In this document: positions 6,969 through 51,608 of the stretch, piece by piece | How positions within the stretch are numbered: the first letter of the stretch is position 1 | Layout: each line of letters starts with the position of its first letter | From: an uncultured Acidobacteriota bacterium | GTDB lineage: Bacteria > Acidobacteriota > Polarisedimenticolia > JACPZX01 > DASXTC01 | Reading direction: 5' to 3' | Length of the DNA stretch: 64,000 nucleotides | NCBI GenBank assembly: GCA_963806495.1 | Contig: CAWDYA010000007.1 | Coordinates: forward strand, 371,945-435,944 | Notes under the pieces: model-generated | What the model was told of the DNA's origin: nothing | The model's database searches: none | Seen by the model: the letters and a program-made list of their open reading frames with translations, nothing else | Program-made: the position numbers and the translations under genes

Positions 6969-6972
6969 TATA

Positions 6973-11583: not shown

Positions 11584-11589
11584 GACGCC

Positions 11590-19285: not shown

Positions 19286-19528
19286 GTGGCAGGGCAGGGC
19301 TCCCGGGGAAACGATACGCGCGGGATGCGCGCGCACGCGAGAATGCTAACACAGCGCCACGACGCCGCCCAACGGATAGTGCGGCAAACCCTGTGATATA
19401 CTCGACGCCGTTCTGGAGGCCCGATGCCGAGCCCCCGGACCGCAGTCCCACCGGTCCGCGGCCCGCCGTCGCTTGTCATCAACCGGTCGAACCGGACCAC
19501 CTCGACATCACGGGAGCAGGCTGATCTC

Positions 19529-20841: not shown

Positions 20842-21939
20842 TCAGCGAGCGCCGCCATGCATGCGGATGGCCCTTCGCAGAAGCTCTTCGAGGCGATCCA
20901 TGTTGGCCGAAAGGTCGCCTTCCTTCTCCACGAGCGTGCGGTTCACGGGTGCCGCTGCCTTGCGCAACGCGCGATCCTCGATCGCTCGCTCGAGGGCCAC
21001 GCTGAGCGAGACGGCGTCTCCCGGCTCGAAGAACAGCCCCGTCTCGCCCTCACGGATCCATCCCCGGTTGGCCCGGATCCGGCTCACGACGGGAAACAGG
21101 CCGCAGGCCATCGCCTCGAGAAGCGAGGAACTGGTCCCGTCGCTCAGCGAGGCGGAGACGTAAACGTGAGCCGACCGGAGCAAAGCACGCAGGGTGTCGT
21201 GGTCGACCTCTCCGGCGAACGTGACCGACTCGCCCAAGCCGAGTGAGGCGGCCTGCGACCGCCGGCGCTCCAGGTCCGGTCCGCCGCCTACCAGTGTGCA
21301 GCGCAGCGGCGGGCCCGCCCCTTTCAGCCTGGCCAGCGCCGCGACGAGCGTCTCGTTGCCGTAGACCGGCTCCTGCCGGCGGGTACAGACGATGTGGATG
21401 GGCCCGTCTGCCTCGTCTTCGGCCGCTGCGGGAGCGAAGAAGGATGTGTCGACGCCCACGGGGAAGCAGGCGATCTTCTCGGGGGTCACGCCGCAGGCCA
21501 CCAGCTTCTCGACGAGTTCCTCGGAGACGGCGTGCACGAGCCGCGCCCGCCCGCACACGTATCGCATCATCGGCCCATGCAGACGTCCTCCCGGCAGATA
21601 GCCCGCCTGTTCCAGCACGTCGCCACCGCGTGCCGAGACCACCAGCGGCCCCCTCCAGGCGAGGGCGGCCGTCATCCCGTTGGAGCTCAGATAGGTGGCG
21701 AGGACGACATCGGGGGCGAAGCCGGAAAGCAGTCGGCGGACGCGTGGCACCCTGGCGAGGAACCGGAGCGGGCCCGGCATCTCGAAACGGACGGGCCGAT
21801 CGAGGTGGACGACACGGACACCCTCCAGCGGGTTGGGGCTGAACGAGAGCACGAGGACCTGATGGCCGCGTTGCAGGAGCTGGCGGGCGTAGTGTCTGGT
21901 CCAGACAGCGTTGGTATGCGCCACCAGCGCGACCTTCAT
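20842..21939 (-). CDS. Glycosyltransferase family 4 (GT-B, group 1)
   Basis: 365 aa with the C-terminal GT4 'E.GxxxxE' region ('GWIREGETGLFFEP'); immediately downstream of the AsnB-family gene. Confidence 0.8.
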   Translation of the reverse strand: MKVALVAHTNAVWTRHYARQLLQRGHQVLVLSFSPNPLEGVRVVHLDRPVRFEMPGPLRFLARVPRVRRLLSGFAPDVVLATYLSSNGMTAALAWRGPLVVSARGGDVLEQAGYLPGGRLHGPMMRYVCGRARLVHAVSEELVEKLVACGVTPEKIACFPVGVDTSFFAPAAAEDEADGPIHIVCTRRQEPVYGNETLVAALARLKGAGPPLRCTLVGGGPDLERRRSQAASLGLGESVTFAGEVDHDTLRALLRSAHVYVSASLSDGTSSSLLEAMACGLFPVVSRIRANRGWIREGETGLFFEPGDAVSLSVALERAIEDRALRKAAAPVNRTLVEKEGDLSANMDRLEELLRRAIRMHGGAR

Positions 21940-21964
21940 CTCGCGTCACCTCTATGCAGGCCTG

Positions 21965-23881
21965 TCAGCTGAACCTCCGGCCTTCTCCATCGAGGTAGAG
22001 GCGCATCCACAACTCGAGGAAGAAAACCTGCGAAAGCGTGGTCGTGAGATCGCGGTGATTCTCGTAGAATTGATGTTTGAGCCATTCAGTGAACCCAACG
22101 TCGAAGACTCCACGCGAGCGGACACGCGCGGGAGCCAGGGCATCGTACACCTGCTCCTGCAGCGCCCCCCTGAGCCAGGTCTCCAAAGGTGACGCGAAGC
22201 CCTTTTTCTCACGATAGATGCAGTGTCTGGGGATGTACCGTTCCGCAAGCTTCTTGAGGACACACTTCAGACGAGGTCCTTGAATGTGCATGGAAGCGGG
22301 GATCGTCGCCGCCAGCTCCACCAGGCGATGATCGAGGAAGGGGACTCTTGCTTCCAGGGATACGGCCATGCTCATCTTGTCCTGCAGCAGAAGAAGAGTG
22401 TCGACAAGCGTCATGTGAGTGTCCATGTACATAGCCTGATCGACAGGATCGTCCAAGTCCGCAATCCGGCTCCAGTAGCCTTCGAAGGTGTCATCCTGAA
22501 AGGTCGCACGCGTCAGGTCGCAAAATCCAGCGGCGAAAAACGAGCCTGGATAGTCCTGCGGCAGATAGGATGTGGCATTCGCCCAGGAGCGCCTAATGTC
22601 CCCGTGAGCGGTCCTGACGAATCTCTTGGCGATGCGCATCGTATTGGTCACTCGGCTGGTGTGTCGCTCGGGCAGCATCGCAATAAGCGGCTCGATCAGG
22701 CTGGAGCGCACCAAAGAAGGGATCCTCAGGTATCGGCCGTGATATTTTGCGGCGAGATATCGACGATATCCGCCGAACAACTCGTCGCCGCCGAGTCCGG
22801 AAAGCGTGACAGTGACTTGTTTCCTGGCGAACTCGCTCACGGCGAGAGTGAGGAAAGCGGCGTTGTCGCCACACGGCTCGTCGAGATGCCAGACGACCCG
22901 CTCCACGTCTCTCAGCAGATCCTCGGATTTCAGGATCATCTGATGGTGTTTCATCCCATATTGCCGAGCGACTTCCCCGGAATACTGCAGCTCGTTCATA
23001 TAGGCTCCCTCCTCGCCGAAGCCGATGGAGAAGGCCTCGACGGGCTGAGAGCTGAACCGGCACATCATCGCGGCGACGAGTGACGAGTCCACACCCCCGG
23101 ACAGGAAGACGCCGATCGGTACGTCGCTCACCATCCGGATCCGCACCGACTCCTGCAGCATCTCATCCAGGGCGTCCAGAAGTTCCCGCTCCTCCCAATC
23201 TCGCTTGCGATCGAAATGGACGTCCCAGTATCTCCGATCCGCGAAGCCATTCCGATCGAACGTCGCGACATGACCCGCCTCGAGCCTCCGGATTTCCTTG
23301 AAGGTGGAACGCGGCGCCGGCACGGTGGAGAAGTTCATGTAGGCCGCGATCGCATGCGGCTCCAGGCTCAGATCGAGACCGGGTACCCCGAGCAGCGCCT
23401 TGGTCTCCGAGGCGAACAGGAGGCGATTCGGCTGGCAGGCGTAGTAGAGCGGCTTGATCCCGAGACGGTCTCGCGCGAGAACGAGACGCTCCTGCCGCGT
23501 GTCCCACAGAGCTATGGCGAACATCCCGTTGAGGTGATCCACGAAATCGAGCCCGTGATCCTCGTACAGGTGCAGGATGGTCTCACCGTCGCCGCCCGTC
23601 TTGAATACGTGTCCCCTGGAGACAAGCTCCTCCCGGAGCGCGCGATAGTTGTAGATCTCTCCGTTGAAGACGAGCCAGATCGAGTCGTCCTCGTTCGACA
23701 TCGGCTGGGGGCTGCCGGCCAGGTCGATGATGCTCAGTCGCCGGAAGCCGAGCGCCGCTGGCCCGCTGGTGTGAAGGCCGTCGTCATCGGGGCCGCGGTG
23801 CCTGAGCGCCGCGGTCATCCCGCTCACGACCTCGCGCTCGGGCGGGCCGGCAAAGTCGACGATTCCGCAGATGCCGCACAT
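21965..23881 (-). CDS. Asparagine synthase (glutamine-hydrolysing) family amidotransferase
   Basis: 638 aa; N-terminal 'MCGICGI' Ntn glutaminase motif, 'SGGVDSS' PP-loop; the class that commonly accompanies polysaccharide loci. Confidence 0.85.
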   Translation of the reverse strand: MCGICGIVDFAGPPEREVVSGMTAALRHRGPDDDGLHTSGPAALGFRRLSIIDLAGSPQPMSNEDDSIWLVFNGEIYNYRALREELVSRGHVFKTGGDGETILHLYEDHGLDFVDHLNGMFAIALWDTRQERLVLARDRLGIKPLYYACQPNRLLFASETKALLGVPGLDLSLEPHAIAAYMNFSTVPAPRSTFKEIRRLEAGHVATFDRNGFADRRYWDVHFDRKRDWEERELLDALDEMLQESVRIRMVSDVPIGVFLSGGVDSSLVAAMMCRFSSQPVEAFSIGFGEEGAYMNELQYSGEVARQYGMKHHQMILKSEDLLRDVERVVWHLDEPCGDNAAFLTLAVSEFARKQVTVTLSGLGGDELFGGYRRYLAAKYHGRYLRIPSLVRSSLIEPLIAMLPERHTSRVTNTMRIAKRFVRTAHGDIRRSWANATSYLPQDYPGSFFAAGFCDLTRATFQDDTFEGYWSRIADLDDPVDQAMYMDTHMTLVDTLLLLQDKMSMAVSLEARVPFLDHRLVELAATIPASMHIQGPRLKCVLKKLAERYIPRHCIYREKKGFASPLETWLRGALQEQVYDALAPARVRSRGVFDVGFTEWLKHQFYENHRDLTTTLSQVFFLELWMRLYLDGEGRRFS

Positions 23882-23977
23882 GGTCGCGGGTCAGGCCTCC
23901 GCTGGAGGGTTTCAAGGAAGGCATCAATATAGCGTCCCCCGGAACGGGCGCGCCAATGGATAAAGGCCGGTGCCGCC

Positions 23978-24793
23978 TCAGCGTGTGTGTTGTTCGAGGA
24001 AGGCGATGGTCTTCGGCCAGGCGGCTTCGGCCGCCCTCTTGTTGGCGCCGTCACGGCCCGACTGCGCCCGCAGAAAGCCGTGCCCCGCCCCCTCGTAGGA
24101 GAAATGCTCGTAGCTCCTTCCGGCGGCCTTCATCGCCGCGACGGTGGGCTCGATGGTGGCTCCCACCCGGGCGTCGTCGCCGCCGTACAGTCCCAGCACG
24201 GGGGCCTTGATCGCCTCGATGGCCGAGGCCTCCGTCGGCGCGGTGCCGTAGTAGACGACGGCCGCGTCGAGGCCGGGCTGGCTCGCGGCGTAGGCGAAGC
24301 TGCGCGAGCCGCCCCAGCAGAACCCGATCACGGCGCTGTGGCCGTCGGCCGCCGGCAGGCCGAGTCCGTACCGGCGGACGGCATCGAGACGCTTCGTCAC
24401 CTCGTCCTGATCCAGGGCCGCGACCAGCTTGACCCGGTCGTCGCGACTCGCCACCGACTCGCTTCCGCCCCCGGAGGGCCCCTTGCCCGACAGCAGGTCG
24501 GGCGCCAGCGCGATGAACCCCTCGGCGGCTAGCGAGTCGGCCACGCTGCGCACCCAGTCGCTCAACCCGAAGATCTCGTGGATCACGATCACCACCGGCG
24601 CCTTGTCCTTCCGCTCCGGGTAGACCACCCAGGTCTTCACCCCCTCGACATCCACCCATTCGCCGTGGCGCGGCGAGCTGTCGAGCGCGGTCCTGGCGGT
24701 CTCCTCGGCGGGGGGGAGGTTCGGCTTGTCGGTCGCGGCGGCCGTCAGGACGACGGTCAGGCCGAGAGTCAGGATGGTCGCTACCGGTCTCAT
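23978..24793 (-). CDS. Dienelactone hydrolase family protein (secreted)
   Basis: Real part of ORF 23978..25135 from 'MRPVATILTLGLTVVLTAAA' (signal peptide, GGAGGA Shine-Dalgarno upstream); 'VVIVIHEIFGL', 'GFCWGG'. The upstream part of the track ORF is the C-terminus of the neighbouring sulfatase-like gene in the same frame. Confidence 0.75.
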   Translation of the reverse strand: MRPVATILTLGLTVVLTAAATDKPNLPPAEETARTALDSSPRHGEWVDVEGVKTWVVYPERKDKAPVVIVIHEIFGLSDWVRSVADSLAAEGFIALAPDLLSGKGPSGGGSESVASRDDRVKLVAALDQDEVTKRLDAVRRYGLGLPAADGHSAVIGFCWGGSRSFAYAASQPGLDAAVVYYGTAPTEASAIEAIKAPVLGLYGGDDARVGATIEPTVAAMKAAGRSYEHFSYEGAGHGFLRAQSGRDGANKRAAEAAWPKTIAFLEQHTR

Positions 24794-24816
24794 GTTTCCT
24801 CCTTCCTTTCGTGGCG

Positions 24817-26861
24817 TCATTCGATGTAGCCGAGCGACTTCAGGGTGTCGAGAAGTTCCTCGTCCTTCTTGTCCCGATCGCTCGATGCGGTTCCGAGCGA
24901 ATTCACCAGGAAAGTCGTCGAGCCGGCCTGCGAGAAGCCTCAGCAGCTCGGGCTCGGCCGCGGACAAATCCCTCGTCTCGCCCGGATCCTCCTCGAGATC
25001 GTACAACTCGTACGCGTCGGGCGCCGAGGGGCCGAGAACCGTCCTCTCTCTGAAGCCCAGCAGTTCACTCGTCTTGATGTCGTCGGCCCCGAGAGCCGGA
25101 TCGATGCGCGTGGCCCTGGCATGGTCGTGGGGCACCAGGATCAGCTTGTACCGCCCGAGCCGGATCGAGCGCAGCTTGCCCGCCTCGCCCGGGATCGTGG
25201 GAAGGGGGTTCTGCGACAGATAGGACAGGTCCGACTCGCTGAAGATCTCGCGGTTGCCTATGTCACGGGAGGGCGTGCTCGCCTCCCGGAGAGAGCACCG
25301 CCGCGAGGCTCATTCCGTCGCGCTCCGACGCATATCCGATATCGAACATGTCGAGCAACGTCGGCGTGACGTCGATGAGGCTAACGGGCTCATCTATCTT
25401 GCGCCCGTCGGTCTGGCCCGGCAGATGGAACATCAGGGGGATATGCAGACTCTGCTGGTAGACACGGTCGCCGTGGGAGAAGAAGTACCCGTGCTCTCCG
25501 AGGCTCTCTCCGTGATCGGCCGTGACCACGAGAACTGTTCGCCCGCCGGCAGGCCCGTCGGTCGCGGCATCGACCAACCGTTTCACCTGATCGTCGAGAA
25601 AACGCACTTCCCCCGCGTACAGGGAGTCGAGGCGCTCCACCTCCTCGGCGGGCATCGTGTTGTGATGAATCACGTCGCCTATCGTGAGCTTCCCAGATTC
25701 GATCTCGTCGTAAACCGTGAGCGGCTGTCGGGGCGACGGGTCGACCTCATCGCGGTACGGCTCGGGCGGCTCATAGGTCCAGTGCGGGTCCAAGTAGTGG
25801 ACCCAGAGAAAGAACGGCCGGCCCTCGACCGCGTGAAGCATCTCGATCGCGCGGTCGGTGGTGACGTCGGCGACCTCGGACTGCGGGCGGGTGGTGTCAA
25901 AGCGATTGAGAAAGAAGGTCACGGCACGGGGGTGGAGCCTGGCGAGCAGGTCGAGAAGCACCAGGTGCTTGACCTGGCCGCGCAGGCCCAGCCTCCCCTG
26001 GTAGGTGTCGAAGCCCTGCGAGATGCCGCTGCCGCGATCGATGAGGCCGTTTGTCAGGACGGCCGCCGTGACCCACCCACGGCTCCGGAACTCCTCGGCC
26101 AGCGTCCGGTTCGACCAGGCGAGTGTCGAGAACAGGCTCTCGAAACCGTGACGATAAGTGTAGTCACCGGTCATCAGGGAGGAGATCGCCTGAGGCGTCT
26201 TGGGGATCGGCGTGGACGTGTCGAGGAACGCGAACGAACGAGAGGCCAGGGCGTCGAGGCCGGGCGTGCGCGATTTCTCGAGCCCGGGCGGGAGCTCGCC
26301 CTGCCCCCTGAAAGCGCCCAGGGCGTCGGCGCGCAGCGTATCGATCGTGATCAGCAGCACGCTGCGGGCCCCCTCGGGAGGCGTCGGCGCGCCGAGCGCC
26401 ATCCGCGCGCTCAGAAAGGCGGGCACCGAGATCGTCACGACGATCAGCAGTGAGGCGGCGACCCAGGAGATCCGAAGAGGAGCGGTACGCCGGGGCGCGA
26501 GCGCCGCGGTCGCGAGCAGGACGAGCGTCACCACGCCGAGCATCGTCCAGGTCGCTCCCGGGATCCCGAGAACCGGCTGGAGCGCCCGCGATCCTCCCCA
26601 CGCGAGCAACAGCGCCATCAGCGGGATCAGGGCGGTCGGGCCGACACCGAGGCGGCGGGCGAGCAGGGTCCCAGCGAGGAAACCGGCGACGGCGCCGTAC
26701 ACGGCGGCCAGGGCGATCCCCCACCAGGCGAACGTCAGCGAGTCGGCGCGGCTGTCATACAGCACGGGCGACCATCTGGCGAGCCAGATCGCCGCTTCGA
26801 CCGCGCCGAACGCGGCCATGACGAGGCAGGCCGCGGCCGCCGTGAGAAGGGGACGCTTCAC
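24817..26861 (-). CDS. Membrane-anchored sulfatase-like hydrolase/transferase, paralog 3 (two frameshifts)
   Basis: N-terminal 532 aa in ORF 25263..26861 ('LLITIDTLRADALG', 'HYLDPH', 'VTADHGE'). Continues in the frame of ORF 23978..25135 ('RYKLILVP...YELYDLEEDPGE'), then a third frame ending 'DTLKSLGYIE'. Frame changes near 25266 and 24905. Confidence 0.6.
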
Positions 26862-29000
26862 TCGAGTGACTCGACCGCGCGGGCAGCCGCCTCGAGCATC
26901 GGCTGCGCCGAAAGAGGCTCACCCACGGCCTGTCGCATCCAGACGTCGGGTGTGATCGAGCCCAGCCTGCAGATCCGCTCGAACTCGGGCCCGAGGGCGG
27001 GACTCTGCCTGAAGTGGCTCTCGATCTGGAAGGCGATCAGGTGCCCGAGCGGATAGTCGGGCAGATACAGCCCCGCGTCGATCATGTGCGAGTAGACGGC
27101 CAGTATCGGCACGTCCTTCACGCCGAACATCGCGGCGAAATGCCGGTTCCATACGTCCTGGGCGATGGACACGACGGCCTCGCGGAACCGTGCCGGGGAG
27201 GCGTCCGGGTGCTCGTATAGCCAGCGCCATGCCCCCATGTCGACGAGCGCCACGGCGGCGATCTCGCGGGTGGCCCAGAAGGTCTCCAGGGCCTCGAGAT
27301 TCTGCGAGTCGGCGTCCGGCCCGGAGAGGCCCAGAAGCTGCAGATCGCGCGACTGGAAGACGAAGGCGAGCGCCTCCGTGAACGCGGTGTTGGGGACGCC
27401 CTGGAGCAGGGTGTGATCGATCGACGTCACCGAGAAGACCTGTTCGACGTTGTGCCCCATTTCGTGCACGGCGATGTTGTAACCCTTGTAATCCATCCCC
27501 CCTGGTCCGACGCGGGTCCTCAGATGGGCGTCGTCGTCACGGCGGGTGGCTCCGAGCGCGTGGCCCGCGCCGCGCGACGGATCGACCGTGATGTGTTCGG
27601 CGAGGAATGCCGCCTGTTTCACGGTGAAGCCGAGCTCGCGGAACATCCGCGGCATATCGGCGGCATACGCCTCGGCGGTCGGGTACCGCTCGCGCGTGCG
27701 GGCGTCGAGCTCCGACTCGGAGTAGCGGCCCCGCGGCTTGAACCCGACGTACCATATGTCGAACGGCTCGAGAGGTCTGCCGAGCCGTCGCGCGATGAGC
27801 GCCGCGACGCGAGTGCCGAGCGGTGAGGAGAGCACCGACTCGAAGAGCTTCTCGACCTGCTTTTCCGGGATCTCGCGGTCGACGTTGAACCGGCGATCGA
27901 TGAAGGTCGGGTTGTCCGGGTGATACGGGATCCTCTCTACGCACCGCCTCGAACACCGCGATCCAGCGTCGGTAGCGCTCGTCCGGCTCGCGCGCCGTGT
28001 CCGCCACGGCACGTCGTCCCTCCGGCGCGGGCGTGTCCGGGATGGGCGACACCGCCACCGTGTTGGCGTAGGGATCCCAGTCCACGAGGGGGTTGTCGAT
28101 GGCCACGGCCGGTATCTCCTGCCGGACGATGCGTTCCATCACCTTCTGGATCATGCGCTGGCGGGCCAGGCCGTCAGGGTCGGCGTAGCGCGCCTTCAGC
28201 TCGTCGCGCAGCCCCCAGTGAGTGATGAGGCGGAGGCCTTCAGGGAACAGCCGCTGTCCGGAGTCGTCCAGCAGGTGATGCATGAAGATGTTGTACCCGC
28301 TGATGTACGTGTCCGCCGCCGCGAACGCCTCGGCGATCCGCTGGTTCACGTCGGCGGGAACGCGCGAGGAGAATTGCGCGGCGAGCCGTGTCTCGGCCCA
28401 GGCGCGGCGGCTCCAGGAGGCCCCATCGGTCATCCGCTGGTCCAGCGTGGTGAGAGGGAAGTTGAGCAGCACCACGAACGCCAGCTTGTTGCCGAACAGA
28501 TCCTCGGTGACATGGGCGCGAGGGGAGTAGGCGGCGAGGATGCGGTCCACCGGCAGGATCGGCCCGATGTCGAGATCCACGCCGCGGCGCAGGTCACGCT
28601 CCATCGAGGTGAGGTAGCCGCCAATCCGCTCGAAAGAGAACTCGAGCCGGTCGAAGGTGGCGTCGTACAGTTCGCCGCGGGGGATGAACTCGTCCTGGAG
28701 GAACCCGCGAAGCGCCTCCGCATCCCCGTCCGAGGGCCGCCACGCCCTGAGCACCTGCGCGACGCCCTGGTCGATCCGCGCCGCTTCCGCGGGGCCCGCC
28801 GTGTCATGAGCCGCGTGGAGCCGGCGCGCCGCCTGCTCCGCGGCCGCACTCCACGCGGCGCGGTCCTCATCGGGTGCGTCGGTCCTGCCGAATGACCACG
28901 AGGCCCCGGCGAGAAGCAGCCCCGAGGCGAGAGCGAGACGAATCGCTCCGCTGAGGAGCGGCGGAAGGACTGTTCCGAAGACGAGATGGTCGTGGTTCAT
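26858..29000 (-). CDS. Secreted zinc metallopeptidase (HEMGH motif; family unresolved, possibly M2-like) (frameshifted)
   Basis: N-terminal part in ORF 27537..29000 (signal-like start 'MNHDHLVFGTVLPPLL'); C-terminal part in ORF 26858..28012 with 'YNIAVHEMGHNVEQ'. Frames join near 27935-27942. Confidence 0.6.
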
Positions 29001-31648
29001 GGCAGCGTGGCCTCCTGCAGACCGGGAAGGTACAGGGCGTTGAACAGCAGCTTGAACGTCCGGTGAGTCTGCGCACGATGCTGGGCGCGCAGCCCGATGA
29101 GCACCACGCGGCCCTTGCCCACCGTCAGGTCGACGACGGCGGCCCGACGGCGCAGCCGGTCGGCCCCTTTCAGATAGCCGCTCACGAGGATCTGGTCGTC
29201 GTACTCGGGATACCTCGCAACCACGCGCCGCTCGAACCGCGCGTCGGGAAGCCGGGTCTGGAAGGCGGGGGACGTGGCGAAATAGCCGGCATCATCCGGG
29301 AGCATCCCGTATCCGATCGGGTTGTCGGTGTCGACGAGGATCCTCAGCATCGAACCGGGACAGTTGAACTGATCGCGGGTGACCTTCTGCAGGACGTTGG
29401 TCACGGGAAGGTCGAGAAGCTCGATCAGATAGTCGGCCGATGAGTCGAGCGCGACCACCGTGCCTCCCTGCTCGGTCACCCATTTCCTGATGGAGGCGCT
29501 GCCGTCCGGGTCGAGCCCGCCTGCGTATTCGGGCGGAAGGGGAGAGAAGGAGGCGCGCGCCGGTTCGGGCGGCTTGCCTTCCTTGATGATCTCCTTGTCC
29601 AGGTCCGGAAGCAGCAGGACGTCGATCCTGCCCGTGAACGCACCCGCGCGGATCTCCTCGTTCGAGAGGTTGACGTACGTGAACCCGTACTGCTCCAGCA
29701 GCCAGCGGGTCCATCCTTCGTCCATGCTCGCCATCCACGGCTTGTACAGGCCGACACGGACCGGCCGCACGGAGAAGGCCCGGCCGGAGGGGGCCCGGTC
29801 GAGCGGGCGGACCGGAAGATGCAGCTCCGCCGAGAGGCGGCCCAGCTCGGCCCCGCTCGCAGCCCCGGCAGCGATGTAGATGTCACCGGGCGTCGCGCCG
29901 TCGCGCAGCCAGTACACCCTTCGCTTTTCGGCCAGCAGGCGGTTGAGCGCCGTGTAGACACTGTCGGCCGCGTGCGGGATCATCCATCCGCCCGGCGCCT
30001 GCGTGACCGGCCCGCCCGGCCAGGCGGGCGCACGGATCGGCTCGAGACCCGCATCGGGCACCGGGCGCTGTAGCGGGACGACATCGACACCCATCGAGAT
30101 CGGCAGCGACCAGGAGGTCACGTCGTACGGCGGCAGGATGTCGCCGCCCGGCGCGCCCGACACCTCGGGGTAGCGCTGCGGCTCCAGCATGGTCAGGATG
30201 AACTGACGGAACGGCTGCGCCGCCGGTATCACGTAGGAGCCGGCCGGGTAAAGCGTGCGGGTCGCGACGCCGTCCGGGTCGGCCCGGCCCTCCTCCACGG
30301 ACAGCGGTGACGCGGCGATATCCACGCGAACGCCGTGACGCAGCAGCAGCTCAATCATCCCGGCCGCGGCCACCGGGTCGTGCTGGCCGGCCGGCACCAC
30401 GAAGCCGTACGGCGGCTCCGATCGGCCGCGCCGGATCGCCTTCGCTCCCAGGTCATGGAAGCTCTTCAGCAGATCGCTGCGGTACCGGGAGCAGGTCTCC
30501 AGGAGCGCGCGCGTGGCGATCAGCTCGTAGTCGATGATGTCACGCAGCCGCCACCATCCTCCCTCCCAGGGGGTGAGATAGTTGGCGCGGCGGGCGTACT
30601 CGGGCAGCCCCTTGACGCCGCCGCGCAGCTCTCCCGGCTCGATGTAGACCGGCGAGGCGATCCGCACGCTGGCGACCTCGGTCAGCAGCCCCACGATGTT
30701 CTTCCACCATGCGGTGTTGCGTGTTCCGCCTGGCCAGTAGCTGTCATAGATCATGTTGCTGCCCACCCCAGCCTTGCCGGCCTCCTCGAGGCGAAGCGCC
30801 ATCGTCGTGCCGATCAGGTCGGCGTGCCTCAGCACCATCGAATCGATTCCGGGGTCGACGGGGTCGGTCTGCGGCGGGACGAACATCCGCACGCTGCTGC
30901 CGCCCATCTGGTGCTCGTCGAGGAACACCTGCGGGTGCCAGTCGTGATACAGCACGTCGTTGACGACCCGGGTCTCCTTCTGCGTGAGCATGTAGAAGTC
31001 GCGGTTGTCGTCATGACCGACGTAGGGGTGATACAGCCACGGCATCGGCCCCCCCTCGTAGGGCGTGCCGAGATACCTGTCGTACCAGTCCACGACCATC
31101 ACCTGCCCGTCGGGATTGATGGAGGGCATGACGAGCAGGATGACGTCGTCGAGCCAGCGTTTCATGGACGGGTCGTCGGTCGTGGCCACCTGATACGCGA
31201 GCTCCATCGCCATCTGGGTCGAGCCGACCTCGGTCGAATGGATGCTGCAGGTGACGAGGACAATCACCTTCCCCTCGTCGATCAGACGGCTCGCCTCGCC
31301 GTCGGACAGACCCGCCGGATCCGCCAGGCGCGCCGCGATCCGTCTGTAGTGGTCGAGGTCCGCCTGGTTGCTCCGGGATGTCAGAACCACGAGCAGCATG
31401 TCGTTGCCGAGGGTCGACTTGCCCGCGAGCCGCACCGACACCCTGTCCGAGGCGTCGGCGAGCGCGTGCAGATAGGCCACCACCTTCGGGTAGGGAGCGA
31501 GATAACGGTCGGCGCCCACCTTTGCGTGGAGGAAGTCGTCCGGCGAAGGGATCCCGGCCGCCCACGCGTGCGGGGCGCCGAGCAGCAGGGCGGCCAGGAT
31601 CAGGCAGCGCGCCGTGCGCGTCAGCACGTGCCCGCCGGGCCGAGACAT
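28997..31648 (-). CDS. Peptidase M14 (zinc carboxypeptidase-like) family protein, secreted
   Basis: 883-aa C-terminal part of the 1823-aa track ORF, from 'MSRPGGHVLTRTARCLILAALLLGAPHAWA'; 'CSIHSTEVGS' HxxE-type motif. The upstream 940 aa of the track ORF is read-through and is excluded. Confidence 0.7.
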   Translation of the reverse strand: MSRPGGHVLTRTARCLILAALLLGAPHAWAAGIPSPDDFLHAKVGADRYLAPYPKVVAYLHALADASDRVSVRLAGKSTLGNDMLLVVLTSRSNQADLDHYRRIAARLADPAGLSDGEASRLIDEGKVIVLVTCSIHSTEVGSTQMAMELAYQVATTDDPSMKRWLDDVILLVMPSINPDGQVMVVDWYDRYLGTPYEGGPMPWLYHPYVGHDDNRDFYMLTQKETRVVNDVLYHDWHPQVFLDEHQMGGSSVRMFVPPQTDPVDPGIDSMVLRHADLIGTTMALRLEEAGKAGVGSNMIYDSYWPGGTRNTAWWKNIVGLLTEVASVRIASPVYIEPGELRGGVKGLPEYARRANYLTPWEGGWWRLRDIIDYELIATRALLETCSRYRSDLLKSFHDLGAKAIRRGRSEPPYGFVVPAGQHDPVAAAGMIELLLRHGVRVDIAASPLSVEEGRADPDGVATRTLYPAGSYVIPAAQPFRQFILTMLEPQRYPEVSGAPGGDILPPYDVTSWSLPISMGVDVVPLQRPVPDAGLEPIRAPAWPGGPVTQAPGGWMIPHAADSVYTALNRLLAEKRRVYWLRDGATPGDIYIAAGAASGAELGRLSAELHLPVRPLDRAPSGRAFSVRPVRVGLYKPWMASMDEGWTRWLLEQYGFTYVNLSNEEIRAGAFTGRIDVLLLPDLDKEIIKEGKPPEPARASFSPLPPEYAGGLDPDGSASIRKWVTEQGGTVVALDSSADYLIELLDLPVTNVLQKVTRDQFNCPGSMLRILVDTDNPIGYGMLPDDAGYFATSPAFQTRLPDARFERRVVARYPEYDDQILVSGYLKGADRLRRRAAVVDLTVGKGRVVLIGLRAQHRAQTHRTFKLLFNALYLPGLQEATLP

Positions 31649-32691
31649 CCCGCGAGCAGCCGGTGGAACTGGTGCACGCCGGCTTCCCGGGCGGGGGAGA
31701 ACCGACCGCGATCGTAGGTGCGGGAGGCCAGGCCCTTCTGCACCGCCTCGCAGATGGCGATGTCCTCGAGCTGGATGCCGTGGCTCGCCGCTACCGTGTG
31801 CTCGATCGAGGCACGCGCCTCGGGCGTGCCGGTCTCGAGGAAGTACCACTCGAAGATCGTCAACGTGCGATCGTGGCCGAGCGGCAGGATCAGGTTGGTG
31901 GAGAAGTTGTCCGGGTAGACGTTCAGCATCAGGTTCGGGAAGACCCAGAAGTAGAGCGCGCGGTCGTCGCCCTCGCGAAGCGGCGCGACCTGTACCGAGC
32001 CGAGGCCGAACGTCTCGGTCCGGTAGGCGTCGTAGTCGAGCCATCGGAACAGCTTCGGATGCACCACCGGGATGTGGTACCCCTCGAGGTAGTTGTCGAC
32101 GTATACCTTCCAGTTGCAGCGGATCTCGTAGTCGCGACGGCGTACCGGCTGCATACGGTCGAACGGCGTGTCCGGAGCGCGCTCCGCGACCGCATGCATC
32201 GTCTCTTCGAGAGGCCGGGCTGCCGGATCGAGGTTCACGAACACCAGCGGGCCCCAGACATCGGCCGCCGCAGGCGGAAGACGCACGCTCTTCGGGTCGA
32301 ACCGCTCGACCCCTTCGAACTCCGGGGTCCTGAGCAAGGCCCCGTCGAGGCCGTAGGTCCAGCCGTGATACCCGCACTGATGCGAGCGTCTGTTGCCGGA
32401 GCCGCAGGCCACCGGCCCGGCGCGGTGGCGGCAGACGTTCGACATCGCGCGAAGGCTCCCCCCGGCGTCGCGCAGCAGGAGCATCGGCTCGCCGGCGACC
32501 TCGGTGGTGAGATAGTCGCCGGCGGTCGAGAGGCTCCCGGCGTGGGCGGCGAGCTGCCAGCTGCGTCCGAACACGCGTTCCCGCTCGGCGGCCAGCGCCG
32601 AAGGATCGGTGTACCAGGTCGATGGGAGCGTCCGAGCCGCGGCGAGCCGGGGCTCGATCTCGGGCGGATCGGGCGGCTGATGGGGTGTCAT
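31621..32691 (-). CDS. Rieske [2Fe-2S] non-haem iron oxygenase alpha-subunit-like protein
   Basis: Start chosen at 'MTPHQPP'; Rieske motif 'CRHRAGP...CGYHGW'. Confidence 0.75.
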   Translation of the reverse strand: MTPHQPPDPPEIEPRLAAARTLPSTWYTDPSALAAERERVFGRSWQLAAHAGSLSTAGDYLTTEVAGEPMLLLRDAGGSLRAMSNVCRHRAGPVACGSGNRRSHQCGYHGWTYGLDGALLRTPEFEGVERFDPKSVRLPPAAADVWGPLVFVNLDPAARPLEETMHAVAERAPDTPFDRMQPVRRRDYEIRCNWKVYVDNYLEGYHIPVVHPKLFRWLDYDAYRTETFGLGSVQVAPLREGDDRALYFWVFPNLMLNVYPDNFSTNLILPLGHDRTLTIFEWYFLETGTPEARASIEHTVAASHGIQLEDIAICEAVQKGLASRTYDRGRFSPAREAGVHQFHRLLAGCLGPAGTC

Positions 32692-32782
32692 GGCGGCGGG
32701 ATTGTACCACGCGGGAGCGCACGTCTCGCCTATACTGCGACGGTCGAGCCCGGCACGGCCCGGTACCGGAAAAGGGGGTTCC

Positions 32783-34072
32783 ATGAGGCATGCCATCCGA
32801 CGTTCGGCCGCGGCGATGCTCCTGATGCTGCCAACGTGCGCCGCCGTGCTCGCGGCCGAAAGCGCCGTCGACCATTACAGAAAGGCCGTAGCCGCCTACA
32901 AGGCGGGCGACTTCGAGGGGTATCGCGCGTCGATCGCCGAGGCAGTGCGACTCGCGCCGGATCATCCGGCCTACGTGTTCGATCTCGCCGGGGCCGACGC
33001 TCTGACCGGGCGACCCGTCGAGTCGATCGCGGCCCTGCGGCGTCTGGTGGAGATGAAGGTCTGGCAGGACGTGGAGGTCGAGCACGACCTCGATCCGATC
33101 CGTGGCACGCCGGAGTTCCGCGACGTCGCGGCCGATCTGGCTGCGCTGAAGAGGCCGATCGGTACGAGCGTGAAGGCGTTCCGCCTGCGCGAGAGAGACT
33201 TCATCCCCGAAGGGATCGCCTACGACCCGGACACCCGTTCGTTCTTCGTGGGAAGCGTGCATCTCGGCAGGATCGTGAGAGTGGATCGCAAAGGCCGGGA
33301 GACCGGCTTCACGCGGGACGGTGAGGCGGGCGTCTGGTCGATCCTGGGGATGGCCGTGGACACACCTCGCAAGCTCCTGTGGGCTTGCACGAGCGGCATG
33401 GCGGAGACGGCGAACCTGGCGGCGCCCGACAAGGGAAGGGCCTCTCTGCTGAAGCTGGATCTCGCCACGGGAAAGCTCCTCGCACGCTATCCGCTCGCGG
33501 GCGGGCAGCCGGAGCACAACTGCAACGATCTGGCCATCGGGCCCAAAGGCGACGTGTATGTCTCGGACGCCATCTCTGGGCAGATCCTGCGTCTGGCCCC
33601 CGGTGGCGCGGGGCTGACGGAGTTCGTGCCCGCCGGGCGGCTGCGCTCGCCCCAGGGGCTGGCCTTCTCCGCCGACGGCCGGTATCTGTTCGTCGCGGAC
33701 TACGCGAGCGGCCTGCACCGGCTCGCACCGCCGGATGCGGAGCCGCTGAGGCTGGAACAGCCTGCCGGCATGTCGGGTCGTGGCATCGACGGGCTTTTGT
33801 TCTTCGAGGGCTCCTTGATCGCCATCCAGAACGGCGTGCGTCCGCACCGTGTGGTGCGCCTGCATCTCGACGCCGGCATGGCGCGGATCGAGCGGGCGGA
33901 GATCCTGGAGATGAACAACCCGCACTTCGATGAGCCGACGCTCGGCGTGATCGTGGGCCGGGATTTCTTCTACGTGGCCAACAGCCAGTGGAGCCGGTTC
34001 GAGCCCGATGGCACGATCTTCCCGATGGACCGGCTCGAGCGGCCGGTCGTGCTGAAGCTGCGGCTGGACTGA
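32783..34072 (+). CDS. Secreted beta-propeller protein (SMP-30/gluconolactonase/strictosidine-synthase-like) with N-terminal TPR-like region
   Basis: Start chosen at 'MRHAIRRSAAAMLLMLPTCAAVLA' (signal peptide); repeated 'GIAYDPD', 'NDLAIGPKGDVYVSD', 'GLAFSADGRYLFVAD' blade motifs. Confidence 0.6.
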   Translation: MRHAIRRSAAAMLLMLPTCAAVLAAESAVDHYRKAVAAYKAGDFEGYRASIAEAVRLAPDHPAYVFDLAGADALTGRPVESIAALRRLVEMKVWQDVEVEHDLDPIRGTPEFRDVAADLAALKRPIGTSVKAFRLRERDFIPEGIAYDPDTRSFFVGSVHLGRIVRVDRKGRETGFTRDGEAGVWSILGMAVDTPRKLLWACTSGMAETANLAAPDKGRASLLKLDLATGKLLARYPLAGGQPEHNCNDLAIGPKGDVYVSDAISGQILRLAPGGAGLTEFVPAGRLRSPQGLAFSADGRYLFVADYASGLHRLAPPDAEPLRLEQPAGMSGRGIDGLLFFEGSLIAIQNGVRPHRVVRLHLDAGMARIERAEILEMNNPHFDEPTLGVIVGRDFFYVANSQWSRFEPDGTIFPMDRLERPVVLKLRLD

Positions 34073-34085
34073 GCGGGCCGGCGTC

Positions 34086-35054
34086 TCACATCGCGGGATA
34101 GCGCTCGTACAGGGAGCCGGGCAGGTCGGAGTAGCGCACCATTCCCGGTGTGGTGAGGACGTCACCTCCCTCGGTGATGAGCACCCCCTCGACGCCGACC
34201 CGCTCGAGATGCTCCATGCCTTTCTCGGGGCCGAGCAGGAACGAGGCGGTGGCGGCGAGCCCGGCCCGGAACGCGTCCGGGGCCAGAGTCGTGCTCGCGG
34301 CCACGCCCCGTGCGGGCCAGCCGGTGCGGGCATCGAGCAGATGGTGGTACCGGACGCCGTCACGGAGAAAGAATCGCTCGTAGTCGCCGGAGGACGCGAC
34401 CCCGCCATCCCACACCATCCGGACGGAGAATCGGCATCGGGTGCGGATGCGAGGGTCGAGCACGCCAATTCGCCAGGGCTTGCCGTCGCCGCGCGCGCCC
34501 ATGGTTCGGATGTCGCCCGCGAGGTTCACCACCGCCGACTCGACCCCCTCCTGCCGGAGACGGTCGGCCACACGATCGGCCGCGTACTCCTTGCCCACGC
34601 CGCCGAGATCCAGCTCCATCCCCTCGCGTCTCAGGAAAACCGTCCCGTTGCGTACCGACACCTGACGGTAGTCGACCAGGGGCAGGAGCGCGTCGACCTC
34701 GGCGGGGGAGGGGACGCGCTGGTGCCTGAAGTCCCAGACCCGCCGCAGCACCCCGACCGTCGGGTCGAAGGCGCCGCCGGTGTCGGCGGCAAGGGCGAGC
34801 GCCTGCCCGACCAGCGCCACGGTCTCTTCGTCGACCGCCACGGGGGTGCGGCCGGCGTTGATGTTGATCCGGCCGATGACGCTCGATGCGATGTAGCGGG
34901 AGAACTTGCGCTCGATCCGGTCCGCCTCGTTCATCGCCGCGGTCGCCACGGCCTCGGCGTGCCGCTCGCCGCGATCGTCGACGAAGCGAAGCAGGCCCCA
35001 GCTCCCCATCGCCCGGAACCACTTGTTGTACAGAGCGCGGTCGGCGGCGGCCAT
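34086..35054 (-). CDS. FAD:protein FMN transferase (ApbE family)
   Basis: 322 aa; ApbE-like throughout ('FDPTVGVLRRVWDF', 'LGGVGKEYAADR'). Confidence 0.8.
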   Translation of the reverse strand: MAAADRALYNKWFRAMGSWGLLRFVDDRGERHAEAVATAAMNEADRIERKFSRYIASSVIGRININAGRTPVAVDEETVALVGQALALAADTGGAFDPTVGVLRRVWDFRHQRVPSPAEVDALLPLVDYRQVSVRNGTVFLRREGMELDLGGVGKEYAADRVADRLRQEGVESAVVNLAGDIRTMGARGDGKPWRIGVLDPRIRTRCRFSVRMVWDGGVASSGDYERFFLRDGVRYHHLLDARTGWPARGVAASTTLAPDAFRAGLAATASFLLGPEKGMEHLERVGVEGVLITEGGDVLTTPGMVRYSDLPGSLYERYPAM

Positions 35055-35055
35055 A

Positions 35056-36270
35056 TCAGAACTTGAACCTGAGGCCGACAGTGGCGGTCAGCGTCTGCAG
35101 GTCGGCCGGAGAGACGCTGCTCGAGCCGCCCCCTTCGTTCTCGTTTTCGTTCTCCAGGGACGTGACCGGAGGCTTGAGCAGCAGCGTGGGCGTGCCGAGC
35201 GGGCGCACCCGGTCCAGCCCGGTCTGGTCGGCGTAGGTGGCCTCGAACATGACCGACACCCGGTCGCTCACCTCCACCGTGAGCCCGATACCGGCCAGCC
35301 AGCTCCAGAACGAGGACAGCCGGTAGTCGCCGCTCATGTACGGCTGCGGGGTGGAGAACTCGTAGCCGAAGAACTCCGCAGCGCTCTGTCTGTAGTAGCG
35401 CAGCCGGGGCGTGACGATCACCTTGTCGCCGACCCGCTGATCGAAGGTGAGGTCGATGGTGTGGGCGCGGATCGACCAGTCGTCCCAGTAGTAGCGGTAG
35501 CTGGTCTTGAGCGCGCCGCGTGTCGTGAAGTAGTGACCGAACTTGATCACCGCGCTCTTGCGGCTGCGCGTGTCGGGGCGCACCTCGGGGACGCTCGTGT
35601 TCGGGTCGAGGGTCACCCGCTTGTACGGGTCCGTGAGATACCCGTTGAGCTTGTCGAGCCCGAAGGAGAAGTCGACGAGGTCCCTGGGGCCGAGGATCTG
35701 GGTCCATCCGATCGAGTACGAGTCGCTGCTCTTGGTGAAGCTGTCGTTGGTGCCGACCGGGTCGATCTGGTCGCGCGTGATACCGATCCCCCCGTGCAGG
35801 GTCGAGCGCCCGCCGAACAGATCCAGTGAATCCACCAGTGACACGCCGCGCGACAGGTAGTCCGACTCGTGCGAGTAGCTCAGCGTGATCGATGGAAGCT
35901 GGGAGCCGAACCGCTTCGAGTACGAGCCGGTGATCGCCTGGCGCGTGTCGGTGTACTGGGCCTTGGGGATGCTGCTCGACGAGGACGACGAGGCGCTCGC
36001 CGTGGCGTCCATCGTCGGCATCTCGCCGGTGGGCGATGCGCCCGAGATCGAGTCATAGGAGAGGAGCAGGCCGAACTGTCCCTTCTCCCCGAAGTCCTGG
36101 AGCATGTAGATCTCGGGGTTGCTGACCTGGGTCCGGCCGTCGCCTTCCTTGTAATGCAGGAAGCGGAAGTCCACGGTGGTATCGGCGCGGGCCGTCGAGC
36201 CGGCCAGGGCCCCGATGCCGGCGGCGAGCAGCCCGAGATTGCGTCCCGCCTTGCCGTCAGTTGCAGCCAC
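35056..36270 (-). CDS. DUF3570-like outer-membrane beta-barrel protein
   Basis: 404 aa; signal-like N-terminus, Ser/Thr/Tyr-rich alternating pattern, C-terminal 'LRFKF'. Its position between a DUF4266-like gene and ApbE matches a neighbourhood I recall for DUF3570. Confidence 0.6.
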   Translation of the reverse strand: MAATDGKAGRNLGLLAAGIGALAGSTARADTTVDFRFLHYKEGDGRTQVSNPEIYMLQDFGEKGQFGLLLSYDSISGASPTGEMPTMDATASASSSSSSSIPKAQYTDTRQAITGSYSKRFGSQLPSITLSYSHESDYLSRGVSLVDSLDLFGGRSTLHGGIGITRDQIDPVGTNDSFTKSSDSYSIGWTQILGPRDLVDFSFGLDKLNGYLTDPYKRVTLDPNTSVPEVRPDTRSRKSAVIKFGHYFTTRGALKTSYRYYWDDWSIRAHTIDLTFDQRVGDKVIVTPRLRYYRQSAAEFFGYEFSTPQPYMSGDYRLSSFWSWLAGIGLTVEVSDRVSVMFEATYADQTGLDRVRPLGTPTLLLKPPVTSLENENENEGGGSSSVSPADLQTLTATVGLRFKF

Positions 36271-37012
36271 AGCCGCCCCCCGAGACGCCTCCGTTGCCCG
36301 CGGCGCCCTCCTTGCTCGCGTGGATGTGCTCGCGCATCGAGCGGGTCAGCATGTCACCGTCCAGGCTCATGATCGGGTCGGCCAGATAGCCGCGCTGCCA
36401 CGCCCGGAGGTTCCCGTTCGGCCCCTTGCGCTTGCCACCGGCCTCGGAGGCGGAGGCGGGGAGCACGTCGCCGTGCAGATAGGCATCGAGCGCCTCCTCC
36501 GTCTGCCCGTGAACCGTCTCGGTGCCTCCCTCGAACCGGGCGATCTCGCGCCCGTCGGGACCGAGCAGCACCGATGTGGGCATCGCCGCGACCGCGAACA
36601 CCTCGCCGCCTTTTCCTGACGGGTCGCGCCCCACGAGGAAGGTGGTGGGCGGAAACGAGGTGATGAAGTCGTACACAGCGTCATCGTCGGTCTCGAGCGA
36701 CACCGCGATGACCTGCAGCCCTTCGGGGTGGTATCGGGCGGCGAGCGTATCGAGCCACGGGAATCCCTTGCGGCAGGGGATGCACCAGGAGGCCCAGAAC
36801 TCCAGCAGGACGGGCTTGCCGCGAAACTCGGCCAGCGTGTGGGTCCCGCCCCTCATGTCCGTGAAGCTGAAGTCGGCAGGGAGAGCAGGCTCGGTGTCGG
36901 CCGTTGCGGAAAGGGCCGGCGCCGGGGAAGGGGGCGTCGCGGGAGCGGCGCCGAGCAGCGAGAGCATGCACAGGAGCGCCGGGTAGAGACGTCGTCGTGA
37001 GCCGGATGTCAT
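36257..37012 (-). CDS. TlpA-like thioredoxin fused to a C-terminal DUF4266-like module
   Basis: 251-aa C-terminal part of ORF 36257..37975: signal 'MTSGSRRRLYPALLCMLSLLGAAPA', thioredoxin 'EFWASWCIPCR', then a ~70-aa tail ending 'GNGGVSGGGCGCN'. The N-terminal 320 aa of the track ORF is artefact. Confidence 0.65.
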   Translation of the reverse strand: MTSGSRRRLYPALLCMLSLLGAAPATPPSPAPALSATADTEPALPADFSFTDMRGGTHTLAEFRGKPVLLEFWASWCIPCRKGFPWLDTLAARYHPEGLQVIAVSLETDDDAVYDFITSFPPTTFLVGRDPSGKGGEVFAVAAMPTSVLLGPDGREIARFEGGTETVHGQTEEALDAYLHGDVLPASASEAGGKRKGPNGNLRAWQRGYLADPIMSLDGDMLTRSMREHIHASKEGAAGNGGVSGGGCGCN

Positions 37013-41392: not shown

Positions 41393-41495
41393 GGCCCCAT
41401 CGTCGCAGGATGCCGGGTCGCCCGCAACTCGGCGTCGTGGCGGTGTCGCTGACCGGTGCCACAACCGCCGATGGTGTAGTAGGATCGGCGCCGGT

Positions 41496-41571
41496 GGGCC
41501 GTTAGCTCAGTCGGTAGAGCATCTGCCTTTTAAGCAGAGGGTCGCTGGTTCGAGTCCAGCACGGCTCACCA
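41496..41571 (+). tRNA. tRNA-Lys (anticodon TTT)
   Basis: 76 nt with encoded CCA; cloverleaf with 7-bp acceptor stem GGGCCGT/ACGGCTC (one G-T pair), anticodon stem TCTGC/GCAGA and loop CTTTTAA, T-loop GGTTCGAGTCC. Confidence 0.85.
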
Positions 41572-44852: not shown

Positions 44853-44930
44853 GTCCCCATCGTCTAGCCAGGCCTAGGACACAGCCCTTTCAAGGCTGCA
44901 ACACGGGTTCGAATCCCGTTGGGGACGCCA
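44853..44930 (+). tRNA. tRNA-Glu (anticodon TTC)
   Basis: 78 nt with encoded CCA; acceptor GTCCCCA/TGGGGAC, anticodon loop CTTTCAA; very close to the canonical bacterial tRNA-Glu sequence. Confidence 0.85.
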
Positions 44931-51607: not shown

Positions 51608-51608
51608 C

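Follow-up and report, generated by a model that had tools for sequence, protein, structure and literature searches.

A probable peptide-scavenging gene string of recent assembly in an uncultured acidobacterium, built around a widespread putative zinc peptidase of predicted ACE/M3/M32 fold

The minus strand of a 64,000-nucleotide stretch of DNA from an uncultured acidobacterium (contig CAWDYA010000007.1, positions 371,945 to 435,944; hereafter the window, by which we mean the whole stretch analysed) carries a string of seven co-directional genes that opens with a Rieske oxygenase, an M14 carboxypeptidase and a zinc peptidase bearing the motif HEMGH, and runs on into a sulfatase-like gene (sulfatase-3), a dienelactone-hydrolase-family (DLH) alpha/beta hydrolase, an AsnB-type glutamine-dependent amidotransferase and a GT4 glycosyltransferase. 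Judged from sequences and predicted structures, the most likely function of this assembly is that of an exported module for trimming and scavenging peptides, a reading we hold to be probable though by no means secure. It joins what is known of the folds concerned (M2, M3 and M32 enzymes act on short peptides, and M14 enzymes trim C-terminal residues) to the export signals of the proteins and to the amino-acid-catabolic backbone in which their genes are set. The conserved core of such a module would be a zinc gluzincin of ACE/M3/M32 fold, marked by HEMGH and a downstream Glu, followed by a DLH-type or other alpha/beta hydrolase and, in some relatives, preceded by an exported M14 carboxypeptidase for the removal of C-terminal residues. 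Acting jointly, these enzymes would break down oligopeptides outside the cell or in the periplasm to amino acids that can be taken up; the flanking backbone belongs to amino-acid and nucleotide metabolism (hutH, hutU and purA). The operon as a whole would be a recent, lineage-specific assembly in a Polarisedimenticolia-like acidobacterium and no dedicated glycan or envelope system.

Read in the direction of transcription, the string comprises the Rieske oxygenase gene (31621-32691; PF00355 and PF00848), the M14-like gene (28997-31627; PF00246), the HEMGH peptidase gene (26858-29000; about 713 aa after repair of a broken reading frame, and without a Pfam or NCBIfam match), sulfatase-3 (24820-26861; PF00884, about 680 aa), the DLH gene (23978-24793; PF01738 at E 1.7e-44, about 271 aa from MRPVATIL), the AsnB-type gene (21965-23881; PF00733 and PF13537, 638 aa) and, as last co-directional gene, that of the GT4 glycosyltransferase (20842-21939; PF00534 and PF13439, 365 aa). 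The 3' end of the string is convergent with purA (19424-20827, plus strand), which is followed by hutH (17756-19336) and hutU (16071-17852), both on the minus strand; all three score above their NCBIfam equivalog cutoffs. A preliminary description of this DNA had located the first three genes and named their families, and its coordinates prove right and its families right in kind by Pfam, motif and fold comparison. The overlapping stop and start codons that it reported are also present: the Rieske TGA (31623-31621) overlaps an M14 GTG at 31627 by 7 nt (GTGCTGA), or by 28 nt if an M14 ATG at 31648 is used instead, the M14 and HEMGH genes share an ATGA (29000-28997), and the HEMGH and sulfatase-3 genes share a GTGA (26861-26858). 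The reported continuation into the remaining genes is equally plain, with gaps of 24 nt between sulfatase-3 and DLH, 96 nt between DLH and AsnB, and 25 nt between AsnB and GT4.

Overlaps of 4 to 7 nt would imply translational coupling in this lineage. The string as a whole has the features expected of an operon, lying on one strand with short or overlapping junctions and with no internal terminator seen. A scan for terminators and promoters, whose consensus may not apply to this phylum, found no intergenic site beyond shuffled expectation; three minus-strand terminator-like matches all fall within the sulfatase-3 gene, and the total stays within the range expected from shuffled sequence. Given this tight packing and the lack of signals above background, co-transcription of the array is plausible in this genome. 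The presumed promoter would lie in the divergent intergenic region of about 90 nt (32692-32782) that separates the Rieske start at 32691 from a plus-strand TPR/SMP-30-like gene with a likely start near 32783 (MRHAIRR...), and here the scan, under the same limit, detected no sigma-70-like consensus.

At the centre of the string, the HEMGH peptidase was placed by fold comparison, sequence searches having yielded nothing usable: searches with both halves of the window protein returned no usable match in Pfam, NCBIfam or the PDB, none of 57 diverse members of its family reached a Pfam threshold, and a profile of the family found no sequence in the PDB. Within the family the metal-binding residues are strongly conserved. 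An alignment of 10 close homologues shows H513, E514, M515, G516 and H517 to be invariant and offers E543, 26 residues after H517, as candidate for the third-ligand Glu, and among the 57 diverse members the consensus is H-E-x-G-H, with the downstream Glu (E542 in the homologue P0001) nearly invariant. The AlphaFold model of P0001, which is 80% identical to the window protein and was built on a diverse alignment, reaches a pLDDT of 92.5 and a pTM of 0.91; its predicted fold is of the ACE/M3/M32 type, compatible with both an ACE-type helical channel and a neurolysin-like architecture, and stands about equally far from M2, M3 and M32. The protein is thus a probable, if so far predicted, zinc oligopeptidase or carboxypeptidase of this fold, although membership in M2, M3 or M32 is not demonstrable. 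Enzymes of this fold have their active site deep inside a channel, which only short and unfolded peptides can enter.

With family M3 (PepF 2h1j, 2h1n and 2qr4, OOP 4ka8, Dcp 1y79 and neurolysin 4fxy) the protein shares HExxH and a Glu some 26 residues downstream, but identity is 10-14% and only about 480 of 713 residues superpose; the Pfam Peptidase_M3 model reached one of the 57 family members at E 0.027 and none at threshold, and there was no NCBIfam PepF match. The motif context of M3 is HEFGH or HExGH, that of the window protein HEMGH. The resemblance to M2 (tACE 1o86, ACE N-domain 3nxq and ACE2 1r42) includes an identical HEMGH zinc motif and a similar spacing of the third-ligand Glu, such that the M2 pattern of HEMGH with a Glu about 24 residues downstream is found in the protein, yet the Pfam Peptidase_M2 model matched neither the window halves nor any of the 57 members, no PDB sequence was matched even by profile, and identity is 11-14%. 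The M32 enzymes (BsuCP 3hq2, TthCP 3hoa, FisCP 5e3x and DrCP 5giv) are alike in fold and, being Taq-type carboxypeptidases that act as channel-type gluzincins on short peptides, share that general character with it; they differ in that identity is 10-14%, no Pfam or NCBIfam match was obtained, and the window protein is about 200 residues longer and carries an N-terminal export-type segment. The zinc signature differs too, being HESxH in M32 and HEMGH in the window protein.

The family so delineated is large and widely distributed. Clustering yields more than 7,234 groups at 90% identity and 1,254 representatives at 50%. The family occurs in at least 596 GTDB species representatives, and the loci fetched come from many phyla, among them Acidobacteriota, Myxococcota, Planctomycetota, Bacteroidota, Ignavibacteria-type lineages, Gemmatimonadota and Proteobacteria; its sequence is unusually well conserved, with inter-phylum identities of 50-80%. 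NCBI names its members "hypothetical protein", the member from Haliangium ochraceum (P0080) bears the UniRef label "M3 family oligoendopeptidase", and a literature search on "HEMGH" returned mainly ACE and ACE2 papers and nothing on this bacterial family. The HEMGH protein is the only element of the string with some novelty, as no curated Pfam or NCBIfam model and no solved structure covers its family, and we tentatively suggest, as a serious possibility short of a firm expectation, that it may stand for a branch of the channel-type gluzincins of ACE/M3/M32 fold that has the rank of a family and has not been described before. In that case a peptidase with a specific role, on oligopeptides or as a (di)carboxypeptidase, would be widespread among bacteria. 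The characterization of a single member would give an annotation to thousands of genes from those bacteria of soils and sediments that are thought to live partly on peptides.

Two further observations concern the surroundings of the family. In the members P0058 and P0108 the HEMGH peptidase (residues ~50-700) is fused to a C-terminal alpha/beta hydrolase with a GHSMGG nucleophile elbow, an arrangement that echoes the overlapping HEMGH-DLH gene pair found in the clade of the window. Separately, eight Cystobacterineae loci (L045, at 7502-9412, and for example L026, L036, L041 and L052) carry, directly ahead of the HEMGH homologue and on its strand, a conserved open reading frame (ORF) of about 636 aa that by eye only looked like ACE, an M2 peptidyl-dipeptidase; this likeness is no evidence that the two families are distinct.

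The gene upstream of the HEMGH peptidase encodes a recognizable member of peptidase family M14, to which sequence score, catalytic residues and alpha/beta fold all assign it. Its match to PF00246 reaches 61.7 bits (cutoff 21.6) and aligns profile positions 2-136 of 286, and the residues H130-x-x-E133, N208-R209, H239 and E317, which by motif context would correspond to His69, Glu72, Asn144, Arg145, His196 and Glu270 of carboxypeptidase A (CPA), are invariant in 40 homologues. In an AF2 model (pLDDT 79.6) the N-terminal part is matched by Foldseek to CPB1, CPA4 and CPT (E 1e-6 to 1e-5, TMt 0.5-0.6) and the C-terminal part to class-I glutamine-amidotransferase (GATase1)/ThuA-like folds. The protein thus resembles CPA, CPB and CPT in its above-threshold Pfam score, in the retained HxxE, His, Glu and Asn-Arg residues and in a TMt of about 0.6, but departs from these enzymes of ~300-400 aa in its length, in long insertions of low confidence within the catalytic domain (residues 197-213 and 291-358) and in some 450 extra C-terminal residues that include the GATase1/ThuA-like domain. 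NCBI names its homologues "M14 family metallopeptidase", and no NCBIfam equivalog covers it. The preliminary description gave its length as 883 aa, which corresponds to a start at the ATG at 31648; the family assignment stands, while the length gives way to 876 aa from the GTG at 31627, since the gene call in the public data, a 100% identical protein of 876 aa (P0121), and the alignment with the related locus L001 both favour that start.

The same description called these proteins secreted, and inspection of the N-termini agrees with it as far as such inspection goes: the M14 protein begins with a signal-like segment that recurs in 38 of 40 family members, the DLH protein with a classical hydrophobic one, and the HEMGH protein has a hydrophobic segment at residues 22-31. 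We therefore treat the M14 protein as a putatively exported zinc carboxypeptidase of predicted activity.

How much of the string belongs together is best judged from its relatives. The nearest of these, L011 and L012 (HEMGH 77-90% and M14 86% identical), carry a TlpA/DUF4266 gene, DUF3570, ApbE and a divergent TPR gene followed by Rieske-M14-HEMGH, and L001 (HEMGH 80%, M14 78%) has Rieske-M14-HEMGH-sulfatase-DLH. Farther away, L002 and L003 (HEMGH 74%) show HEMGH and DLH overlapping by 4 nt, then a cold-shock gene (CSD), purA, hutH, hutU and an AAA NTPase, and lack M14, Rieske, sulfatase, AsnB and GT4; L173 (HEMGH 70%) has the same order and the same 4-nt DLH overlap. In L004 to L006 (HEMGH 69%, M14 64%) M14 and HEMGH overlap by 4 nt, with an alpha/beta hydrolase and then the purA-hutHU block farther on, and in L174 (HEMGH 71%) the M14-HEMGH pair, again with a 4-nt overlap, stands by itself. 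A common backbone emerges, HEMGH-(DLH or alpha/beta hydrolase)-purA-hutH-hutU-AAA, which in L002/L003, L173 and L004 to L006 holds no AsnB, GT4 or sulfatase gene; M14 precedes HEMGH in few relatives only, and Rieske only in the closest (L001, L011 and L012).

In the window purA, hutH, hutU and the AAA gene lie directly beyond GT4, so that the same backbone is present here, and sulfatase-3, between HEMGH and DLH, and the AsnB+GT4 pair, between DLH and purA where relatives have the cold-shock gene, are therefore lineage-specific insertions. On this basis the HEMGH-hydrolase pair would be the older element, to which M14 was added upstream in some lineages and Rieske in the closest relatives, the sulfatase-like gene and the AsnB+GT4 pair being inserted downstream. 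The arrangement would then amount to ordinary operon growth by insertion, and its mixture of peptidase and glycan genes to an accident of recent gene order.

Wider sampling gives the same picture. None of 80 HEMGH loci from GTDB species representatives has a homologue of M14, Rieske, sulfatase-3, DLH, AsnB or GT4 within 10 kb, the 80 metagenomic loci sampled for M14 homologues of 34-63% identity include none with HEMGH, Rieske or DLH within the same distance, and when ORFs within 4 kb of HEMGH were clustered over the fetched loci, none was common to more than 10. Only an alpha/beta hydrolase recurs as a partner of HEMGH, in the form of the overlapping DLH gene in the clade and of the fused domain in P0058 and P0108. 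A peptidase and glycan neighbourhood kept in diverged relatives, the mark of a conserved cluster, was thus not found, and the preliminary placing of the peptidases within a glycan-modification operon does not hold at this locus in L002/L003, L173 and L004 to L006 as well as in the 80 HEMGH loci. That description had also named the pattern that would count against its unit, namely genes independently arranged in relatives and set apart by terminators or promoters in the window; the first half of this is what we see, while separating signals do not exceed shuffled expectation.

These comparisons bear directly on the alternative that all seven genes form one operon for remodelling the envelope or exopolysaccharide, in which peptidases and oxygenase act on a glycan-linked or cell-wall peptide. 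A run of genes in one direction, overlapping or closely spaced and with terminator-like sites no more frequent than background, would suit such an operon, as would the other polysaccharide genes of the window (two sulfatase-like paralogs at 6706-11583, a GT2, a deacetylase, and CapD-like, Wza-like, Wzz/GNVR and tyrosine-kinase-like genes), and some M14 subfamilies do act on peptidoglycan peptides. Yet L002, L004 and L173 lack AsnB, GT4 and sulfatase-3 at the corresponding place, and there purA-hutHU lies downstream of the HEMGH-hydrolase pair, and no AsnB, GT4 or sulfatase gene occurs within 10 kb of HEMGH in any of the 80 loci; the M14 domain best matches the CPA/CPB/CPT type; and the AsnB protein scores 578.5 bits against TIGR03108, the XrtA/PEP-CTERM amidotransferase model, below its cutoff of 816.9, while it passes the generic asparagine synthase model TIGR01536 (503.7 against 267.1). 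Base composition also sets AsnB apart, the 2-kb bin that holds most of it (22001-24000) having a GC content of 0.609 against ~0.68 around it, which is consistent with recent acquisition of AsnB, possibly together with GT4. We accordingly rate a common envelope-remodelling role as unlikely; of the two roles that had been offered at the outset, envelope remodelling or substrate scavenging, scavenging fits the evidence better, and we find nothing in the sequences that would tie the peptidases functionally to the glycan genes.

Sulfatase-3 itself combines N-terminal membrane segments with an alkaline-phosphatase-superfamily domain. Together with the two other sulfatase-like paralogs of the window (6706-9207 and 9208-11583, plus strand; sulfatase-3 at 24820-26861, minus strand) it lacks, by eye, the formylglycine motif C/S-x-P-x-R and has Thr-x-Pro instead (TLPAH, KTPQA); all three have N-terminal membrane segments and a C-terminal end of the form ...SLGY(I/V)(E/Q). 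They may be phosphotransferase-type enzymes of the alkaline-phosphatase superfamily, not sulfatases.

The Rieske protein, at the head of the string, is a 356-aa alpha subunit of a non-haem-iron oxygenase of the CntA/GbcA/Stc2 type. Among solved structures it comes closest to carnitine monooxygenase CntA (6y8j), to which it can be aligned over its whole length (E 3e-42); its motifs align with the CntA ligands, with CRH...CGYH, the bridging Glu, E-G-Y-H-x4-H (E-x2-H-x4-H) and the ED Asp all conserved, so that both the CxH...CxxH cluster site and the 2-His-1-carboxylate site of an oxygenase alpha subunit are present. The likeness to CntA, GbcA and Stc2 thus extends over full length and ligands, and GbcA is its top NCBIfam model, but at 117.4 bits against a cutoff of 670; NCBIfam scores lie far under every equivalog cutoff, such that it is not assignable as a CntA or GbcA equivalog, and Pfam and NCBIfam scans of the genes at 20842-36270 found no reductase partner of the CntB/GbcB type. 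It has no hydrophobic N-terminal segment or signal sequence and is predicted to be cytoplasmic. We regard it as a competent-looking member of the quaternary-amine Rieske monooxygenase group.

Such an enzyme invites a second alternative, in which Rieske, M14, HEMGH and DLH are dedicated to the catabolism of a modified peptide or amide, for example one with a residue that is N-methylated or a quaternary amine. In this scheme the unit would be freed by the exported hydrolases and then, inside the cytoplasm, demethylated or cleaved by the CntA-like oxygenase. The kinship to the quaternary-amine oxygenases with their catalytic residues kept, the overlap of the Rieske and M14 genes (7 nt in the window and L001, 1 nt in L011 and L012) and a gene resembling sarcosine oxidase or N-methyltryptophan oxidase 8 kb away (40271-41464) are in its favour. 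It is weakened by the restriction of Rieske upstream of M14 to the three closest relatives, the gene being absent from L004, from L174 and from all 160 wider loci, by a string that holds neither reductase nor transporter, and by the sub-cutoff NCBIfam scores, and we consider it improbable, more so than the envelope-remodelling alternative.

Peptide scavenging, which remains our preferred function, has to be set against several observations of its own. A clear N-terminal hydrophobic segment is found in only 29 of the 57 diverse HEMGH members, so that not all of the family would be exported; M14 and HEMGH seldom occur as a pair, which is found in none of the 80 HEMGH and none of the 80 M14 loci, and the two enzymes thus do not need each other; the Rieske protein has no evident role in peptide trimming, nor a reductase partner nearby; and the peptide substrates are suggested by fold and family alone. 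To these must be added the state of the reading frames, where assembly error and real mutation are told apart by the window-wide pattern alone.

The HEMGH gene is not a continuous ORF. The preliminary description was right that a HEMGH-bearing gene of about 713 codons is present, but these are divided between two overlapping ORFs in different frames, 27537-29000 with the N-terminal 357 codons and 26858-28012 with the C-terminal 356 including HEMGH. Frame A runs from 29000 to ~27930 and frame B from ~27928 to 26858; tblastn places the switch, from frame -3 to -1, at 27903/27928, and protein alignment sets it between ...FEAVRRED and PYHPDNPTFIDRRF. The break is a +1 frameshift on the minus strand at 27925-27932, with the shift at about 27927, where the window has one extra base relative to its relatives: it reads GAGGATCCCGTATCAC, L011 (an 86% relative) GAGGACCCGTATCAC and L001 (an 80% relative) GAGGACCCGTACCAC, that is, codons GAG GAT CCC GTA where the intact relatives have GAG GAC CCG TAT. 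More than 7,000 HEMGH homologues are single proteins of about 700 aa.

Sulfatase-3 is similarly interrupted by two +1 frameshifts, at ~25275 and ~24913. A tblastn search with the intact L001 orthologue recovers it as three collinear pieces in frames -3, -1 and -2 ending in ...SLGYIE* at 24820, for a true length of about 680 aa and not 532. Two other frames encode the last 150 residues, some of which had been taken for the N-terminus of a long "DLH" ORF (23978-25135).

Outside the string the window contains at least six further frameshifts. They affect a minus-strand class I/II aminotransferase gene (51604-52788; break near 52090, with the Aminotran_1_2 profile split into positions 3-201 and 209-361 in two frames) and, on the plus strand, a gene for a type-I phosphodiesterase with a TPR part (37217-40189; breaks near 38170 and 38640, with positions 2-115 of the Phosphodiest profile in one frame, 135-222 in another and a third switch ahead of the TPR part), as well as three genes in which the break was located by translation, those of an SGNH/AlgX-like hydrolase (11584-12754; near 12180), an EpsL-like outer-membrane barrel protein (57762-58761; near 58500) and a Wzz/GNVR chain-length protein (58832-60269; near 59290). 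The total comes to at least nine frameshifts in 64 kb, or about one per 7 kb, nearly all of them +1.

Because like frameshifts are scattered through unrelated genes of the window, assembly indels are likelier than pseudogenes, and the broken frames most likely go back to extra single bases left uncorrected in the assembly, while the organism itself probably has intact genes. Each of the three shifts in the HEMGH and sulfatase-3 genes is a single-base insertion where the relatives stay in frame, and apart from them both genes keep 66-87% identity to L001, show neither stops nor deletions and have a normal GC3 coding signal. The contrary view, that the shifts are real and both genes are pseudogenes in an operon decaying in the organism, can point to two neighbouring genes that have three frameshifts between them within 3 kb and to the protein collection, which holds a 100%-identical M14 protein (P0121) but no identical intact HEMGH protein, the nearest being 80% identical. 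The same disparity suggests that the break is probably present in the public record too. Comparable shifts in normally essential-looking genes (aminotransferase, phosphodiesterase-TPR, Wzz, EpsL-like and SGNH), however, sit poorly with selective decay of the string; with the sequence otherwise so well preserved, we think it unlikely that the genes are dead, about as unlikely as a common envelope function or slightly more so.

A third possibility is that ribosomes are programmed to shift by +1 at the HEMGH break, where CCC would occupy the P site ahead of the rare codon GUA. It has in its favour that CCC GUA occurs here in a 68% GC genome and that a +1 slip to CCG would restore the conserved ...DPYHPDNP.... 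But all relatives examined encode the site in a single frame, GAC CC(G/T) TA(T/C), as checked in the DNA of L001, L002 and L011, the tblastn pieces abut in 92 of 92 loci, and breaks of the same type occur at no fewer than eight other sites of the window. With relatives in frame and similar breaks across the window, programmed frameshifting at CCC-GUA is effectively refuted and we assign it a negligible probability. Readings of this window that are based on ORFs, be they of lengths, "paralogs" or pseudogenes, must hence allow for indel errors.

The GC content of about 68% also makes spurious long ORFs abundant in the window. A 1823-aa minus-strand ORF (28997-34468) is such an artefact, only its last 876 codons being coding according to coding-potential profiles, and two plus-strand ORFs of 460 and 648 aa (30335-31717 and 31378-33324) lack a coding signal altogether.

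Several other features of the window deserve mention. Upstream of the string, a minus-strand cluster (34086-36990) encodes a TlpA-like thioredoxin/DUF4266 protein, DUF3570 and ApbE, in the order also found in L011 (1728-4636). Beyond it lie genes for the monomeric flavoenzyme resembling sarcosine oxidase or N-methyltryptophan oxidase (40271-41464) and for an enzyme of the methionine-gamma-lyase family (41575-42780), both on the minus strand and both below their equivalog cutoffs, which places genes of amino-acid and N-methyl-amine catabolism near the CntA-like Rieske gene. A polysaccharide export set on the plus strand (54686-60985) comprises CapD-like, Wza-like, EpsL-like, Wzz/GNVR and tyrosine-kinase-like genes and is followed by a NusG/RfaH-like gene (60897-61595) that may be frameshifted near its end. 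The only matches to Rfam or by ARAGORN in the window are a tRNA-Lys(UUU) at 41496-41571 and a tRNA-Glu(UUC) at 44853-44930, both on the plus strand and far from the string.

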